This document shows positions 10,666-21,044 of a stretch of 64,000 nucleotides of DNA, piece by piece (positions within the stretch are counted from its first letter, which is position 1; every line of letters starts with the position of its first letter). The notes beneath the pieces are model-generated. The model saw only the letters and a list, made by a program, of their open reading frames with translations. It searched no databases and was not told the DNA's origin. Where the stretch lies: NCBI GenBank assembly GCA_963715195.1, contig CAVQRT010000025.1:1-64000 (forward strand), written 5' to 3'. A program made the position numbers and the translations under genes. The DNA comes from Thermodesulfovibrionales bacterium. GTDB taxonomy: Bacteria; Nitrospirota; Thermodesulfovibrionia; Thermodesulfovibrionales; SM23-35.

Positions 10666-11117
10666 ATGAGAAAATTATCAATTTATATGATGGTCTTAGC
10701 GATTGTCGCGGTAACCAGCTTTGCATATGCAGACGAACCTGGTTCCCCGGGCGGATACAATTACTGCCCTTATTGTGGTAGTTATATGGGACCGCAGGGT
10801 GGTCAGGGTATGGGTCCCGGCATGATGGGTGGTCAGGGTATGGGTCCCGGCATGATGGGTGGTCAGGGTAGGGTCCGGCATGATGGGGGTGGCCTGGCAT
10901 GATGGGGCGTGGCTACCAGGGACAGAGCGCGGAATGCCAGAAGTTCTATGACGAGACTGCCGGGCTCAGAAAGGAATTAAACAACAAAAGATTCGAATAT
11001 TTTGAGGCTGTCCGCAATCCGAAGACGACCGGAGAGTCTTTAACGAAGATCGGAAAAGAGGTCAGGGAATTACAGGAAAAGATCTATGCAAAAGGCCCTA
11101 TCGGTTGTTGGCAGTAA
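10666..11117 (+). CDS. Periplasmic ZraP/Spy/CpxP-like protein, split by a frameshift (probable sequencing error)
   Basis: Signal peptide, GMGPGMMGG repeats, then QKFYDETAGLRKEL in another frame. Confidence 0.75.
10798..10910 (+). repeat. 30-bp coding tandem repeat (GGQGMGPGMM)n
   Basis: ggtcagggtatgggtcccggcatgatgggt twice exactly, plus about two indel-damaged copies. Confidence 0.9.
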
Positions 11118-11308: not shown

Positions 11309-11530
11309 ATGGCGGAGATAAAAGTAGATTGTACCAATGAAACCTGTCCGGTTCCTTTGGTCGAAACCCGAAAAGCACTGCGAAAAGCAAAAGAGGGCGA
11401 TATCGTTATCGTCATCGGTACACATCCAGCATCGAAGAAAGAAATACCGATGGCAATTAAGGCGTTGGGACTGGAAATGCTTGATATGAAAGAAGATGGC
11501 ACTGTTTGGACAATCAGAATTCGCCGATAG
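11309..11530 (+). CDS. TusA-family sulfur carrier
   Basis: 73 aa with CPVP motif. Confidence 0.9.
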   Translation: MAEIKVDCTNETCPVPLVETRKALRKAKEGDIVIVIGTHPASKKEIPMAIKALGLEMLDMKEDGTVWTIRIRR

Positions 11531-11538
11531 GGGGAAAC

Positions 11539-11958
11539 ATGGCAAATAAAGCAACCATAATAGCACACAGTGGTGATATGGACAAAATATACAGTGCTTT
11601 AATTATTGGGAATGGGGCACTTGCTATGGGAATGGAGGCATCGATCTTTTTCACATTTTGGGGTCTTCAGCGTCTAAAAAAGGGTGGCCTGGAAAAAGGC
11701 CCTCTATCAAAAATGAATATGCTGGGGCTGGGTAAGCTGATGGTGAAGCTCAAGATGAAGAAAGTTGGGGTAGCTTCTCTGGAAAGACTTCTGCAGGACT
11801 TCAAGGAATTGGGAGGCAAAATACTTGCCTGCGACATGACGATGGAGATCATGGGCATCAAAAAAGAGGAACTGCGTGATGATCTTATTTCTGATTACTG
11901 TGCTGTCGGCACTTATGTGAATGAGGCAAAAGATTCATCTATTACTCTTTTCATCTAA
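11539..11958 (+). CDS. DsrE2/DrsH-like sulfur transfer protein
   Basis: FFTFWGL, ACDMTM conserved Cys, C-terminal TLFI. Confidence 0.9.
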   Translation: MANKATIIAHSGDMDKIYSALIIGNGALAMGMEASIFFTFWGLQRLKKGGLEKGPLSKMNMLGLGKLMVKLKMKKVGVASLERLLQDFKELGGKILACDMTMEIMGIKKEELRDDLISDYCAVGTYVNEAKDSSITLFI

Positions 11959-13140
11959 TGGGAAAAGAAGATTTGATCAGAAAACGTATATATTTCGATA
12001 ATTCTGCTGCAACTCGCATGGATGAGCGGGTGTTAGAGGCGATGAAACCATACTTCTTTGAGAATTATGCAGTTGCTACCTCAGAGTTTGCTTATTCTGA
12101 GGGCATCGATGCCAGAGAGGCTTTGGATGACGTACGTAGTGTCCTTGCTGCATCTCTTGGTGCGAATGCCGAAGAATTCATTTTTACTTCAGGAAACACC
12201 GAGTCTTCAAACCTTGCTCTTAAAGGTGTATCTCTCGCTCTCAGAAAGAAGAAAGGTACCCATATCATTACGTCCAAGATTGAGGATTTCCCGGTACTGC
12301 ATAGTGCACGAGCATTGGAAAAGCAAGGCTTCCAAGTAACGTATCTAGCAGTGGACGGCGATGGTTTTGTTGACCTTGATCAGCTGAGAGGCTCTATTAC
12401 CGACAAAACTATTTTGGTTTCGGTTCAGCATGCAAACCAGGAAATTGGTACTATCCAAGACATTGAAAATATTGGACATATCTGTAAGGAGAAAGACGTA
12501 TTATTTCATACGGATGCCACACATACCTTTACCAGACTTCCTCTTGATGTTGGACACATACCTGTTGATTTGATTACCGTATCTGCCCATACCATCCACG
12601 GACCAAAAGGTATAGGAGGTCTTTACATAAGAAAAGGAACACCAATAACCAAGTGGATGGACGGTGGCTTTCAGGAATTTGATATTCGTCCTGGCCTGGA
12701 AAATATACCCGGTGCGGCAGGTTTTGCTAGAGCAGTGGAACTGGTTACCTCAGACGAAACCCAGAGACTGCAGGCTATGCGGGATAGAATTATTGAACGA
12801 GTACTCGCCGAAATACCGAATACTACGCTCAATGGTCATCGCTGGAACCGACTTCCACAAAACGCCAATATTACGTTTCACTTTGTTGAAGGGGAATCTA
12901 TTACCTTGCATCTTGATATGCATGGGTATGCAGTAAGCACGGGTTCTGCTTGCTTTAGCCGTTCTCTTGAAAGCAGCCATGTCATTATGGGTATCGGCGG
13001 CGACCACGAAAGGGCACATGGTTCAATACGCTTTACCTTTGGACGCTATAACACCATGAGTGAGGTTGACGATATCGTTGGAACACTAGGCTGAGATAGT
13101 AAAGGAACTCAGAATAATCAGCCCACTTGGGAAAGAAAAA
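11958..13140 (+). CDS. Cysteine desulfurase (IscS/NifS) homologue lacking the PLP Schiff-base lysine; last ~16 codons frameshifted
   Basis: YFDNSAAT, FTSGNTES, STGSAC (Cys332); SAHTIHGPKG replaces SxHKxxGPKG; EIVKELRIISPL lies in +1 frame after the TGA at 13092. Confidence 0.9.
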
Positions 13141-13155
13141 ATGGAGGACAACAAA

Positions 13156-13794
13156 ATGAAATTTCCATATAGTGAAATAGTGTTAGAACACTTTCGCCAC
13201 CCGCGAAATGTGGGACAAATTGAGGATGCCGATGGGAAAGCCACTGAAGGCAGCCCTTCTTGTGGAGATATGGTTTCCGTATATATAAAAGTTGATCCTG
13301 AGAAAAAAACTATTAGTGATATCAAATTTGAATCTTATGGCTGTGCTTCAAACATTGCAACAGGTTCTATCATCACTGAACTTGCAAAGGGCAAGACGCT
13401 TGATGAAGCCAAGAAAATTAATTGGAAAACAGCTTCGGAAGCGCTTGGAGGTCTACCGAAAATAAAGGCTCATTGTTCAGTGCTGGCGGTAGAAGGTTTA
13501 CGTTCAGCGATACAGAACTACGAAGAGCGCCACGGTCTGGTCAAAGAAAAAAAACCGACAACGGAAGATGAGATACACAGGCGGCTCAGGAAAGTTATGA
13601 ATCCATTATCAGGACTGGATTTAGAGCGAACCAATTTAGTTAAAAGATGTTGCAACTTAAAGGATGGTATTGTGCGTGTTGTGATAGACCTGCCCCCCGA
13701 CCATCAGTTTTCTAATTCCATAAGGGAGGAAATAAAAGAAAAGATTGAACCGCTTTGGGATATTAAGGAAGTCAATGTCGATTTCATGGGCTGA
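13156..13794 (+). CDS. IscU/NifU-N Fe-S scaffold fused to a DUF59 (SufT/MIP18-like) domain
   Basis: YSEIVLEHF..PRNVG, CGD, GC and KAHCS motifs; C-terminal LRKVMNPLSGLDL; GGAGG RBS before ATG 13156. Confidence 0.88.
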   Translation: MKFPYSEIVLEHFRHPRNVGQIEDADGKATEGSPSCGDMVSVYIKVDPEKKTISDIKFESYGCASNIATGSIITELAKGKTLDEAKKINWKTASEALGGLPKIKAHCSVLAVEGLRSAIQNYEERHGLVKEKKPTTEDEIHRRLRKVMNPLSGLDLERTNLVKRCCNLKDGIVRVVIDLPPDHQFSNSIREEIKEKIEPLWDIKEVNVDFMG

Positions 13795-14582: not shown

Positions 14583-15281
14583 GTGCAGATTCCTCCCTAT
14601 CTTATAAACGAACATTATGATGACCGCTATTTCGATGTGGTCAATGCAATTGAAGAAGCGAAGCACGTCTTTTTTCGGGGTACCGACATCATGGATATCC
14701 TTTCTGCTGCAAGGTCGGGGAGGAAAGAATTCAGAATAGGTGAAACAGGCTTCGGTGCAGGCCGACTACTCATTGCCTTCATAGATTTTCTGGACAATTG
14801 CGGCATCAGGGATATAGCGATTATCTACAATTCAGTTGAACTGCATCCGGTCACTTTTGAGCGAATGGCGACCCTTCTCAGTGGATTAAGAACAGAGGTC
14901 GGTCCGCTTATTGACCTGCTTGTCCGGAAATACAGCCGCGTCGAAATTTCCAGACCGGGGTGGCACCAGATACATCTCACCCGGCCTTTTGGCATCCTGA
15001 GCTTGAATCTCTGGATTGGTGAGGCCCTCGAAATGGTCCATGCACTCACAATTCCCTGTGACGCATGGTTTCTGGATGGTCATGGACCAAAGAAGAACCC
15101 TGCCATGTGGCGGCATGAACTTCTTATGGCAATTGGAGAAAAAACAGTGACCGGAGGAATCTGTGCCACCTATACTGTTGCAGGAACCGTAAGACGGGGA
15201 CTTATCGCTGCGGGGTTTTCTGTCGAGCAACGTCCTGGTTTTGGTGGGAAAAAATCAGTGCTCAAGGGATTAAAAATGTAG
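14583..15281 (+). CDS. Stand-alone MnmC-type (MnmD) tRNA methyltransferase domain
   Basis: EEAKHVF, IGETGFGAG, DAWFLDGH.P.KNP.MW, ATYTVAG and GFGGKK motifs; start uncertain. Confidence 0.85.
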   Translation: MQIPPYLINEHYDDRYFDVVNAIEEAKHVFFRGTDIMDILSAARSGRKEFRIGETGFGAGRLLIAFIDFLDNCGIRDIAIIYNSVELHPVTFERMATLLSGLRTEVGPLIDLLVRKYSRVEISRPGWHQIHLTRPFGILSLNLWIGEALEMVHALTIPCDAWFLDGHGPKKNPAMWRHELLMAIGEKTVTGGICATYTVAGTVRRGLIAAGFSVEQRPGFGGKKSVLKGLKM

Positions 15282-18337: not shown

Positions 18338-21044
18338 CTATGCAGAAACATTATTGATAACTCTCTGAAGGTCGCTATTTATTTTACTGGCAAGAGAACG
18401 GACATAAGGCTTGAGGATAATATTATTATGGTGCCCTGGAATAGTATGGATTTCTAGATTTTCTGCAACACCTTTCCATCCCTTGTCAAATTGTAAGCGG
18501 AGAAGACCCTGAGCCTTTGCCCTGTAAAGAATGAGTCGACCATCGTAGGCATGCGGATTATAAGTGCGCATCCATTCAATAACTTGCAGTATGTAATCCT
18601 TATGTTTATGCTCATGAACTTGGGTATCGATTCTCTTAGGATATTTCTCTTGTATAATTCGGACTACTTTATTCTTCATAATTTTCCAATAATGTGAGTA
18701 CCAAAAAGGAAGGAAATAATACAGCCAGAATGGAAGATTTCTGAAAAAGTCATAGGTAAATATAGCTTTCCACCAGGAGAATGTTGTTACGCCGAAGGGG
18801 CTGACCGTGTCAATCAGGGCGACAAAGGGAACTGGTAGACGTAAGGAGTACCATCTGTTTTGCAATCTCAAAAGCAATAACTCCACCCGAGGAATACCCA
18901 ATAAGAAAATAAGGCCCATCTGGCACAATTTTTCTTATCTCATCCACATAGTATGAAGCCATTTTTTCTACAGATGAACCGAATACAGATTCGGCACTGT
19001 CAATACCATAGACAGGTTGATCGGTAGCAAGATAGTGCACGAGCTGATTGAATATCACGGCGCTTCCTGCGACATGAGGAATACAAAAAAGCGGTGGACG
19101 TGATCCATCACGCCTTATGGGGAAAACAGGAGAGCCATATTCCGCTTGATATCCCTTTTCAATAATTGCTGCGAGCTGTCTTACAGTCGGAGCCTGGAAG
19201 AGAGATGAGGGAGAGAGTCTTTTTCCGAATTCCTTCTCGATCCAGCAGAAGAGATCTATTGCTGAAATGAATCACCCCCAAATCGAAAAAATTCTTATCT
19301 ATATCACACTGATTTGTCCTGAGCACTTTAACCCAAATTTTTGCTAGCCGCTTTTCGACGTTAGTTAGCGGCTTTTTTTGAACACATATATTGCGTTGAG
19401 GTTCGACTTTTACCAAGCGCCAACAGTGCAGTGCGATCAACTTTACCGTTGGGGGTTAGGGGCATCGGTCTAAGAAAAAAGAATGCCGAGGGGATCATGT
19501 AATCAGGAAGCCATCGTTCCAGATGATCTAATAACTGGCTGTTAGAGAGTTCTCTTGCCACTGTTGGTACTAACATAAGCAACAAGGTGCATTTCTCCGT
19601 TATGGTCAATTCTTGGTCCAAGAACAACGGCATCTTGAACAGGGGGGAATTCACACAATGCAATCTCAATTTCTGCTGGTTCTACTCTGAACCCCCGGAT
19701 CTTAATTTGCGAGTCATTTCTTCCCAGATGTTCAAGAACGCCATCATCACGTATTCGACCGAGATCCCCGGTGCGGTAAATACGTTGCTCTTTTTCCGCG
19801 GGATCCTAAGGAAAACTCGTTCTGTCAGAGTTGTGGATTGGACCAGTATCCGGGACTAAGGTATCTGCTTTTCACCGCAATCTCACCAATCTGGTTAACA
19901 CCTACTTTATTGCCTTCATCATCGAGAAGAAGGATTTCTATCTCAGCGGATGCATATCCAACAGGGACTTTGCTTGCGGTATTTCCGAATCGTGATCGAA
20001 AAAATACTGAGCAAATACCCCTGCCTCAGTACAAGCTAGACTATTCATTAGGATACATTGTCAGGGAACTTTTTTTAAATAGTTCAATATCCTTTAACCT
20101 GATAGCCTCGCCGGCTAAATTAATAAGGCGAAGTTCAGGAAATTCTTTGCCTCCGGCAGATTCCTTGCAAAGTGTCGAAAAAGGGTCGGTATCGAATGGT
20201 AGACCGAAATACGGTGTGCGCCATCCAGTCGGGAAGCGACAACAATCCATCTTGTCTAACATCATAGAGGTGTAGAGAAGCCCCGTTTAGCAAAGCACCG
20301 TAAATATCCATAAGGGCTGCGGCAAATCCAAGAGAAGGCAGGAGTGAAAAACGGTCGGAATGAGTAATGCCAATACTGTTTGTATAATTGCAAATTAACT
20401 GAAGGAGATTACGATGGGTCTGCATAACTCCTTTTGGTTTTCCGGTTGAACCTGAAGTGTAAAGAATGTATGCGAGAGTCTCAGGAGATATACCCGCAGA
20501 TCCGGGTTTTCTTCGGAATATCCTTACATTCTCGTCAATGTTTAGAATAGTGACATTTTCTCTTGATATCCAATCTCTGAGTGAAAAGTTACTGTTATTT
20601 GTTACAATGAATGCGGCCCTCGAATCCTCAAGGATATAGCGAATCCTATCAGGAGGAAGAGTTGATGTGATCGGGACATATGCCTTTGCCTGCCTTTAGG
20701 ACTCCTATCATGGCAGCAAGCGCTGCAGCATCATGACCGAAGATCAACGCAACGTGCTCGTTTTCCGCTTTACATGTCGCAGAAATGGCGTGAGCGATCC
20801 GGTTTGCTTTTTTGTTCAAATCATCATAGGTGATTTGGCAGCCTTTACTATAGATCGCTCCCTTTGAGGAAAATTTTTCTACTTGTCTTTCAAAAAGTTC
20901 AGGGATAGACTTTTCTGTTTCTTCTTTCAAAAAAACCACGGAGCGAACATCGAGATGACATCACTGCGAGCAGGGATTCAGTCATGCAACAGCGGAAGAT
21001 TTCCTCTTCGTTGTAGAAGACCTTCTTCCCCAATGCACTGACAT
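18338..21044 (-). pseudogene. Stand-alone NRPS-like A-T-TE gene with many frameshifts
   Basis: [40 protein letters not shown], carrier NFFDLG and TE GYSSGG motifs spread over different frames. Confidence 0.85.

Follow-up and report, generated by a model that had tools for sequence, protein, structure and literature searches.

What can a cysteine desulfurase homologue contribute to iron-sulfur (Fe-S) cluster assembly once the residues that hold its pyridoxal 5'-phosphate (PLP) cofactor have been replaced? This question is raised by a four-gene operon of a Thermodesulfovibrionales bacterium, located in a 64,000-nt stretch of contig CAVQRT010000025.1 that is called the window below. A Pfam search gave the gene order, all on the plus strand, as tusA, encoding a TusA-family sulfur carrier of 73 amino acids (aa; 11309..11530; PF01206, expectation value (E) 5.6e-21), dsrE2, encoding a soluble-type DsrE2-family sulfur carrier of 139 aa (11539..11958; PF13686, E 4.9e-36), a class-V, IscS-like gene that we call iscS* (11958..13094, its start overlapped by the dsrE2 stop codon; PF00266, 219.7 bits), and an iscU/misU scaffold gene fused to DUF59 (13156..13794; PF01592 (NifU_N) and PF01883 (FeS_assembly_P/DUF59)). 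IscS*, 378 aa as assembled, is a Lys-less homologue of the group I desulfurases. At the level of sequence, its PLP residues are replaced, the sulfur-carrying Cys of all four proteins and the IscU ligands are retained, and the four genes recur as a set; the operon, conserved in anaerobic bacteria and archaea, is likely a minimal Fe-S assembly system using sulfur from sources other than cysteine.

The active-site residues have well-established roles in binding PLP and the substrate. With E. coli numbering according to the supplementary alignment of PMC7585200, IscS* was found to carry Val39 for Asn35, Asp110 for His104, Gln161 for Asn155, His189 for Gln183, Thr212 for Lys206 and Leu247 for Thr243, while Thr76, Asp180, His205, Cys328, His350 and Arg354 are retained. 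The Schiff-base Lys is thus a Thr in the motif SAHTIHGPKG (codon ACC, 12591..12593), the PLP-stacking His an Asp in KIEDFPV (12285..12287), His189 lies in DATH (12522-12524) and AVATSE occupies the position of GNPSS, whereas the Cys of the mobile persulfide loop STGSACFS is present as Cys332 (GSAC, codon TGC, 12951..12953). A preliminary description of the locus had reported the Thr codon, ED, DATH, AVATS and the kept GSAC Cys, all of which were recovered where it had placed them; the changes of the phosphate-contacting Thr243 and of Asn155 are additions to it. Among the PLP-ring residues His104, Asp180 and Gln183 and the phosphate-binding Thr243, only Asp180 is kept (as Asp186). Compared with an active desulfurase, IscS* therefore lacks the Schiff-base Lys and the PLP residues but has the GSAC Cys and the class-V fold, and it scores below the family cut-offs for NifS (423 vs 531) and IscS (352 vs 643). 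The family-specific Lys232, present in 80/80 loci, is unlikely to act as a substitute PLP lysine, since the corresponding E. coli residue is Ala228, which lies on the partner-binding surface. Judged by these residues, canonical PLP catalysis is not encoded by IscS*.

The same changes recur throughout the family. Lys was found at the Schiff-base position in none of the best 120 homologues, query included, which have Thr (115) or Ala (5), and all 120 carry Glu-Asp for Glu-His as well as GSAC. A genome scan gave 436 relatives, and the locus counts given here refer to the best 80 of these 436. At position 212 these 80 loci have Thr (79) or Ser (1); Asp110, Phe111, Gln161, His189, Phe238 and Phe333 are fixed, Cys332, Asp186 and Arg358 are likewise kept in 80/80, and Leu247 is found in 68/80, Thr never being among the five commonest residues at that position. 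The stacking site is Asp in every locus, in contrast to His in 37/37 canonical controls and in 65/65 proteins of the Archaeoglobus fulgidus type (Af-type) discussed below. The loci come from Nitrospirota, Dehalococcoidia, Anaerolineae (Chloroflexota), Syntrophales, Atribacterota, Methanobacteriaceae, Altiarchaeales and Methanofastidiosales, with metagenome-assembled genomes (MAGs) of Thermodesulfovibrionales as the closest relatives, and the family forms essentially one cluster in a protein library at 50% identity.

Neutral decay or a sequencing artefact could in principle account for so altered an active site, and single-base insertions in the operon, together with a frameshifted, incomplete second copy, favour such an explanation. 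We nevertheless give it negligible probability. The substitutions are shared by 120 homologues and by 80 genomes of two domains, relatives have intact iscS* frames of 381-445 aa, and the ratio of nonsynonymous to synonymous substitution rates (dN/dS) was 0.08-0.10 in seven pairwise comparisons. The earlier argument that concerted substitutions speak against a sequencing error was borne out, and where neutral decay had been named as an outcome that would overturn the proposal, purifying selection was found instead. These comparisons indicate that the loss of PLP chemistry is conserved and under purifying selection.

The assembly of the operon does contain errors. In comparison with four related genomes and with relatives' contigs from public runs, single extra bases are present near 13088, 13149, 13646, 13653 and 13662, and the premature TGA at 13092-13094 is likely an assembly error. 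Because of these extra bases, the IscS* stop at 13094 is to be read as premature, the IscU start is placed at 13156 and IscS and IscU are not fused. Homologues extend about 20 residues past the window's stop, and by homology the natural IscS* would have about 390-399 aa and end near 13159; the active-site codons are untouched by the insertions. An alternative frame joining IscS* to IscU was rejected, as the two genes are separate in relatives, overlapping by ATGA or leaving a short gap, and two adjacent Cys that the DUF59 tail seems to contain (VKRCCNLKDG) were discarded as the product of three inserted bases. None of the public sequencing runs contains half of the sequence words; metatranscriptome contigs from relatives with about 90% similarity span all four genes, although contigs cannot show expression. 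The second copy, dsrE2-iscS*-iscU on contig C19 (G000:C19:30464-32475; 80% nucleotide identity), contains frameshifts and no tusA and stops short of DUF59; given 6.6% contamination of the genome assembly, it may be foreign or decaying. Elsewhere in the window (18338-20275, minus strand), fragments resembling non-ribosomal peptide synthetase adenylation and thioesterase domains are broken by many frameshifts, which fits an indel-prone assembly.

The other three proteins keep what sulfur transfer and cluster assembly would need. TusA carries the CPxP cysteine typical of TusA sulfur carriers (Cys13, 11345-11347; Cys in 76/77 homologues, one gap), and its closest solved relatives in a PDB search were TM0983 and the YeeD/TsuB domain, not E. 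coli TusA. DsrE2, which matches PDB 2QS7 and 3PNX, has an invariant Cys98 (11830-11832; 78/78 homologues) and a variable Cys121 (56/78). The IscU ATG at 13156 is preceded by GGAGG (the ORF finder started the frame at 13141), and the proteins of relatives have 211 aa. IscU keeps the Tyr, Cys-Gly-Asp, Cys and Lys-x-His-Cys elements, that is, the equivalents of Tyr3, Cys37, Asp39, Cys63, Lys103, His105 and Cys106 of a de novo scaffold, together with an LPPVK-like motif, and its three Cys are present in 79, 79 and 78 of 79 homologues. It scored 70 with the SufU model (cut-off 92.5) and 116-149 with the IscU/NifU models. The C-terminal DUF59 domain had escaped the preliminary description. Carriers of the DUF59/SufT type have a conserved DPE...T-x2/3-C motif, which the IscU tail lacks, with NP in place of DPE and no Cys; none of 78 homologous tails contains a Cys, and a PDB search with the domain gave nothing significant (best E 0.19).

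If IscS* no longer takes sulfur from cysteine, the genes that accompany it may indicate another source. The preliminary description had suggested that homologues with SAH[^K]xxGPKG be examined for co-occurrence with tusA and dsrE2, and this association proved to be near-total and specific to Lys-less proteins. Beside iscS*, tusA was found in 77, dsrE2 in 79 and iscU-DUF59 in 79 loci; the missing iscU, the one missing dsrE2 and one missing tusA are due to contig ends, and two tusA misses look real. In contrast, Lys-bearing group I IscS/NifS loci from genomes with the operon had tusA or dsrE in 0/39 cases, although iscU or nifU was present in 23/39. The Af-type proteins, in which the Lys is replaced by Asp, were collected by a motif scan for SSNDxYGPKG that gave 120 metagenome matches, of which 80 with flanks were examined and the 46 with >=900 bp upstream were counted. 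Within <=1.5 kb on the same strand, these 46 loci had tusA in 39, dsrE in 20, either of them in 40 and iscU in 34; three Methanofastidiosales Af-type genes also adjoin tusA. Neighbour profiles were iterated alike over test and control loci and a Pfam search agreed; the figures are counts from kin that are not independent, and not a statistical test. Further neighbours recur in no more than 16/80 loci, no rhodanese, sHdr or YeeE gene is recurrent beside the operon in the 80 loci, and an electron donor gene is not part of the conserved core.

Some loci carry additional genes. In two Methanobacteriaceae, sufC-sufB-tusA-dsrE2-iscS*-iscU form one same-strand run (L293:3680-8701; L294:3879-8939), and the TusA and DsrE2 of these two might also serve SufBC. 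In twelve Dehalococcoidia-type loci (L036, L037, L039, L055, L057, L058, L069-L072, L082, L087), one or two Asp/Glu/hydantoin racemase-family genes separate iscS* from iscU, and a radical SAM gene and DUF1847 come next. A PF01837 gene (homocysteine biosynthesis sulfur-incorporation) and an fdhD sulfurtransferase gene lie near the operon in some Dehalococcoidales (L030, L031, L045, L059, L085), where a canonical iscS-iscU pair is present on the opposite strand. Among the Af-type loci, a subgroup with an SSSPC loop and a His-rich C-terminus (L122, L135, L141, L152, L161, L169, L172, L187) mostly has tusA and dsrE and no adjacent iscU, and may represent a module of carriers and pseudo-desulfurase with another or a distant acceptor. 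Just downstream of one Af-type iscS-iscU pair, a fusion of a CoA-disulfide reductase-like flavoprotein, rhodanese and TusA (L143:3993-5966) is a candidate sulfur or electron source, and another Af-type IscS stands beside a 519-aa IscU whose insertion inside the CGD motif resembles an intein with a homing endonuclease (L186:1397-2953).

Gene order and motifs identify the operon as the orthologue of isc1 (MA0807-0810) of Methanosarcina acetivorans, which consists of the same four genes, MA0810 (SirA-like), MA0809 (DrsE superfamily), MA0808 (IscS1) and MA0807 (IscU1) (PMC7585200). Compared by eye in Figs S1-S3 of that paper, IscS1 shares YAVATSE, KIEDFPV, DATH, SAHTIHGP, GGFQE and STGSACFSRS with IscS*, and the window protein has the motifs of the IscS1 subfamily (AVATSEF, IEDF, DATH, HTIHGP, GGFQE and GSACFS) as well as its gene order. 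IscU1 (24.2 kDa) has the same C-terminal extension as the window IscU (PMC7585200 supplement), and we found no essential difference between the two operons. Deere et al. (2020) noted the missing Lys of IscS1, suggested a role as in A. fulgidus and called the neighbours genes of unknown function, and in the sections of their paper covered here no TusA/DsrE relay is put forward (PMC7585200). The operon is thus a variant of a minimal ISC-type system that stands outside the active desulfurase family and is partly in print already. In a literature search with most subscription papers and the primary A. fulgidus papers outside it, we found no paper in which supply of a Lys-less IscS by TusA/DsrE was proposed or tested, and no biochemical assay of isc1.

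The preliminary description had pointed to A. fulgidus IscS as a Lys-less, inactive precedent. That protein is indeed Lys-less, but M. acetivorans IscS1, with its same four genes, is the closer precedent. The A. fulgidus IscS2-IscU pair (PDB 4EB5, 4EB7, 4HVK, 4R5F) resembles IscS* in being Lys-less and desulfurase-inactive, in keeping the loop Cys and in pairing with IscU; IscS2 is the top PDB sequence match of IscS*, and its sequence type also sits beside tusA/dsrE. It differs in having other substitutions, in keeping the stacking His and in the PLP seen in 4EB5. Af-type proteins show Lys to Asp, His205 to Asn and Gln183 to Ala and have lost Arg354, but keep the stacking His and the phosphate-binding Thr/Ser, whereas IscS*, about 44% identical to the A. 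fulgidus type, has lost the stacking His and the phosphate Thr and kept the Arg354 equivalent, and so does not show the Af-type pattern of SSNDxYGPKG with a kept stacking His and a lost Arg354. Almost every pocket position has changed to different residues in the two groups, which form separate clades in two quick unconstrained trees. About 17 further Lys-less representatives were seen among 150. Diverged IscS-like clusters, some of them from Promethearchaeota, have changes at the Lys site, the His site or both and retain the Cys (P0125, P0137, P0138, P0141, P0144, P0182, P0189, P0193, P0227, P0242, P0249, P0250). From these sequences, degeneration of the pocket seems to have happened several times among IscS-like proteins.

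In A. fulgidus, a Cys of IscS serves as a ligand of the cluster on IscU (cited in PMC7585200 and PMC9769115), which suggests that IscS* may do no more than hold IscU and lend Cys332 as a transient cluster ligand, with sulfur arriving directly from TusA/DsrE2 or as free sulfide. This ligand or adaptor role has a published structure and proposal behind it (cited in the same two papers), has also been suggested for M. acetivorans IscS1, and is favoured by the rank of IscS2 as top PDB match; the conservation of Cys332 suits either role. It leaves unexplained, however, why Lys-less genes retain tusA/dsrE also at loci that have no adjacent iscU, and why IscS* has a TusA-type docking patch, and we regard it as an unlikely but sizeable possibility.

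The docking patch can be recognised from the E. coli complex, in which Trp45, Glu49, Asp52, Arg55 and Arg237 of IscS bind TusA (Arg27, Arg31) and the changes W45R and E49A abolish binding (PMC2854127). At the positions of Trp45, Glu49, Asp52 and Arg55, IscS* proteins have a hydrophobic Ile/Leu/Met (80/80), Glu/Asp (80/80), Asp/Glu (71/80) and Arg (80/80), while in the canonical controls Gln or Arg predominates at the first of these and the second is Glu in 7/37. The partner TusA has an Arg21 and an Arg25 that are invariant in 24 aligned sequences and that, in a register set by the CPxP motif, correspond to Arg27 and Arg31 of E. coli TusA. The region of the basic CyaY/IscX patch is replaced in IscS* by a fixed Lys232-Trp233...Phe238 segment, which is likely a new partner surface. 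An AlphaFold model of IscS* supports the fold only, with a mean predicted local distance difference test score (pLDDT) of 70, values <50 at 311-354 including the Cys loop, and template modelling (TM) scores of 0.77-0.78 against group I desulfurases. From the conserved helix-2 residues we infer that TusA would dock on IscS* as it does on E. coli IscS.

We therefore consider a relay in which DsrE2 and TusA load inorganic sulfane sulfur and Cys332 of IscS* passes it on to IscU and acts as a transient cluster ligand, a proposal that might equally turn out right or wrong. The preliminary description had inferred a cysteine-independent route of this kind, with TusA/DsrE2 as suppliers and IscS* as relay or cluster ligand, and our results support its reading in part. 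Cys98 of DsrE2 and Cys13 of TusA would be persulfidated by inorganic or small-molecule donors such as polysulfide, persulfides or possibly thiosulfate, and sulfur would flow from DsrE2 to TusA by analogy with characterised DsrE3/TusA pairs. TusA would then dock on helix 2 of IscS* and hand S0 to Cys332, as if the IscS-TusA relay were run backwards, and the Cys332 loop would swing to IscU, deliver the sulfur and transiently ligate the nascent [2Fe-2S] cluster as in the A. fulgidus complex, with the DUF59 tail aiding the hand-off without a Cys.

The components of such a relay are known from other systems. The relays of sulfur oxidisers (rhd-tusA-dsrE2; DsrE3-TusA) and YeeD/TsuB share a CPxP TusA and a DsrE with a conserved Cys, but there sulfur goes to oxidation or assimilation, whereas here they are partnered with a scaffold for Fe-S clusters. 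In characterised TusA and DsrE3 proteins, polysulfide serves as a sulfur source, and sulfur flows from DsrE3 to TusA in vitro (PMC11094781); YeeD decomposes thiosulfate (PMC11073785). Identity of the window TusA with YeeD/TsuB, or a link to thiosulfate import, was rejected, as it scored 24.5 vs 147.5 with NF041048 and no yeeE is present in its genome or beside the operon, although YeeE-family matches occur in 24/58 genomes. The MIS (MisS-MisU), IscS and NifS systems share with the operon the fold, the Cys loop, an IscU-type scaffold with all ligands and a conserved core without chaperones. The operon departs from them in the loss of the catalytic residues from IscS* and in its two additional sulfur carriers and DUF59 tail. 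A 2026 review, the covered parts of which recognise five Fe-S systems and do not mention DsrE, defines MisS as a PLP cysteine desulfurase (PMC13066941).

Several observations weigh against the relay. The helix-2 patch is not shared by Af-type proteins, so that the docking argument is limited to IscS*; 12/46 Af-type loci have no adjacent iscU; and a single origin of the two Lys-less groups was not rejected by an approximately unbiased (AU) test (p 0.233 for one clade), so that the link to tusA may be one event and not two. An E. coli isc/suf mutant was not rescued by A. fulgidus iscS2U2 alone, even when Na2S was supplied (10.1101/2024.03.20.586028), a failure that speaks against a stand-alone role but leaves the carriers out of the test. 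In M. acetivorans, IscS2/IscU2 were the only such proteins found consistently in the proteome, and recombinant IscS1 proved insoluble (PMC7585200). The operon is also usually redundant, with another, higher-scoring class-V protein in 38/50 genomes, SufB in 45/58 and a canonical nifS-nifU in the window's own genome. Finally, the conservation of Asp110, Phe111, Gln161, His189 and Arg358 in all 80 loci is more than a passive relay needs.

This last point would be accounted for if the pocket (Asp110, Asp186, His189, His211, Gln161, Arg358) had been repurposed for cofactor-free or metal-assisted chemistry on thiosulfate or a small persulfide, with sulfur running forward from Cys332 to IscU, TusA and DsrE2. 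The fixed replacements and the retention of Arg358 and Asp186, in contrast to Af-type proteins, which lost that Arg, agree with such an enzyme, as does a mean identity of 74% in the IscS* family vs 53% for canonical IscS of the same genomes, albeit in a family set selected by similarity. On the other hand, the loops of the model are poor, the fixed residues may merely pack an empty pocket, and we know of no precedent in this fold; we see the repurposed enzyme as something of a long shot.

The redundancy, in turn, leaves room for a pathway that still depends on cysteine, in which a canonical NifS or IscS loads TusA in trans and TusA feeds IscS*-IscU. IscS-to-TusA sulfur transfer is textbook knowledge, and IscS* was present in 3/40 relatives of the window's genome, each with a canonical enzyme elsewhere. 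However, 12/50 genomes have no higher-scoring class-V enzyme, and in a wider search of the order the operon protein was the sole PF00266 match at E<=1e-40 in 10/34 Methanofastidiosales MAGs, for which completeness is not given; weaker matches were checked in three of these ten, and all ten have SufB. The Gln or Arg prevailing at the Trp45 position of canonical controls also speaks against loading in trans, W45R being a change that abolishes TusA binding in E. coli (PMC2854127). Supply of TusA by a canonical enzyme thus appears quite improbable. Two loci (L092:1710-5336, L093:2002-5412) encode fusions of 1136-1208 aa between a molybdopterin oxidoreductase and an intact IscS domain that has the Lys, next to a gene whose product presumably resembles an EgtD-type methyltransferase; seven Dehalococcoidia-type genomes and one relative of the window's genome contain open frames of 1129-1226 aa that span a desulfurase.

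Because just 3/40 relatives carry IscS*, the operon is an accessory, mobile cassette. This patchy distribution, together with rubrerythrin and ferritin-like genes nearby (7 and 4 of 80 loci), would suit a module that, instead of building clusters, removes sulfane sulfur from damaged ones or acts as a buffer against polysulfide stress. Since IscU keeps all residues for de novo assembly, and sufCB lies upstream in the two Methanobacteriaceae, sulfur disposal or cluster repair is in our view very improbable. Barely credible is a selenium relay, an alternative raised in the preliminary description that did not hold up. Its architecture has a parallel in the SelD-YedF-YedE-EF2568 cluster, as 12/21 other class-V loci in the same genomes have a TusA/YedF gene beside GLHC-type enzymes of this selenium-linked cluster, and the window's genome has SelD. 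Yet SelD scored above its cut-off in just 31/58 genomes and in 0/10 of the Methanofastidiosales MAGs, so selenium is not a common theme; selD never recurs as an operon neighbour in the 80 loci, and the window TusA lies far below the YedF cut-offs and in another clade. Membership of that cluster was rejected, a YedF-type TusA, a GLHC enzyme and selD linkage all being absent from the operon.

Two further features flank the operon in the window. A stand-alone MnmC2 methyltransferase gene (14583-15281, above the model cut-off) lies 0.8 kb downstream; neither it nor an 83-aa open reading frame near the operon recurs beside the operon in other loci. At 10666-11117, two overlapping frames with a signal peptide and GMGPGMMGGQ repeats gave no Pfam match and are probably one gene split by an assembly indel, which we take to belong to a periplasmic Spy/ZraP-like family.

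How sulfide-derived sulfur enters the Fe-S clusters of anaerobes is an open question, for which the operon offers a testable candidate for cysteine-independent assembly. M. acetivorans can do without SufBC and suffers from the loss of IscSU2 only on cysteine, and Saini et al. (2023) concluded that further factors have yet to be discovered (PMC10500019). It is possible, though we would sooner doubt than assert it, that a Lys-less IscS with TusA/DsrE constitutes a sixth prokaryotic Fe-S route, a cysteine-independent ISC-type system reached twice, with the IscS-TusA relay reversed or the pocket repurposed, and the missing factor for sulfide-derived clusters without SufBC in Methanosarcina and other anaerobes. 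As isc1 resides in the genetically tractable M. acetivorans, the question is directly testable. If true, the inactive IscS of A. fulgidus would be explained through the supply of sulfur donors that earlier tests lacked. Hundreds of genes annotated as cysteine desulfurase (436 relatives) are probably misnamed.

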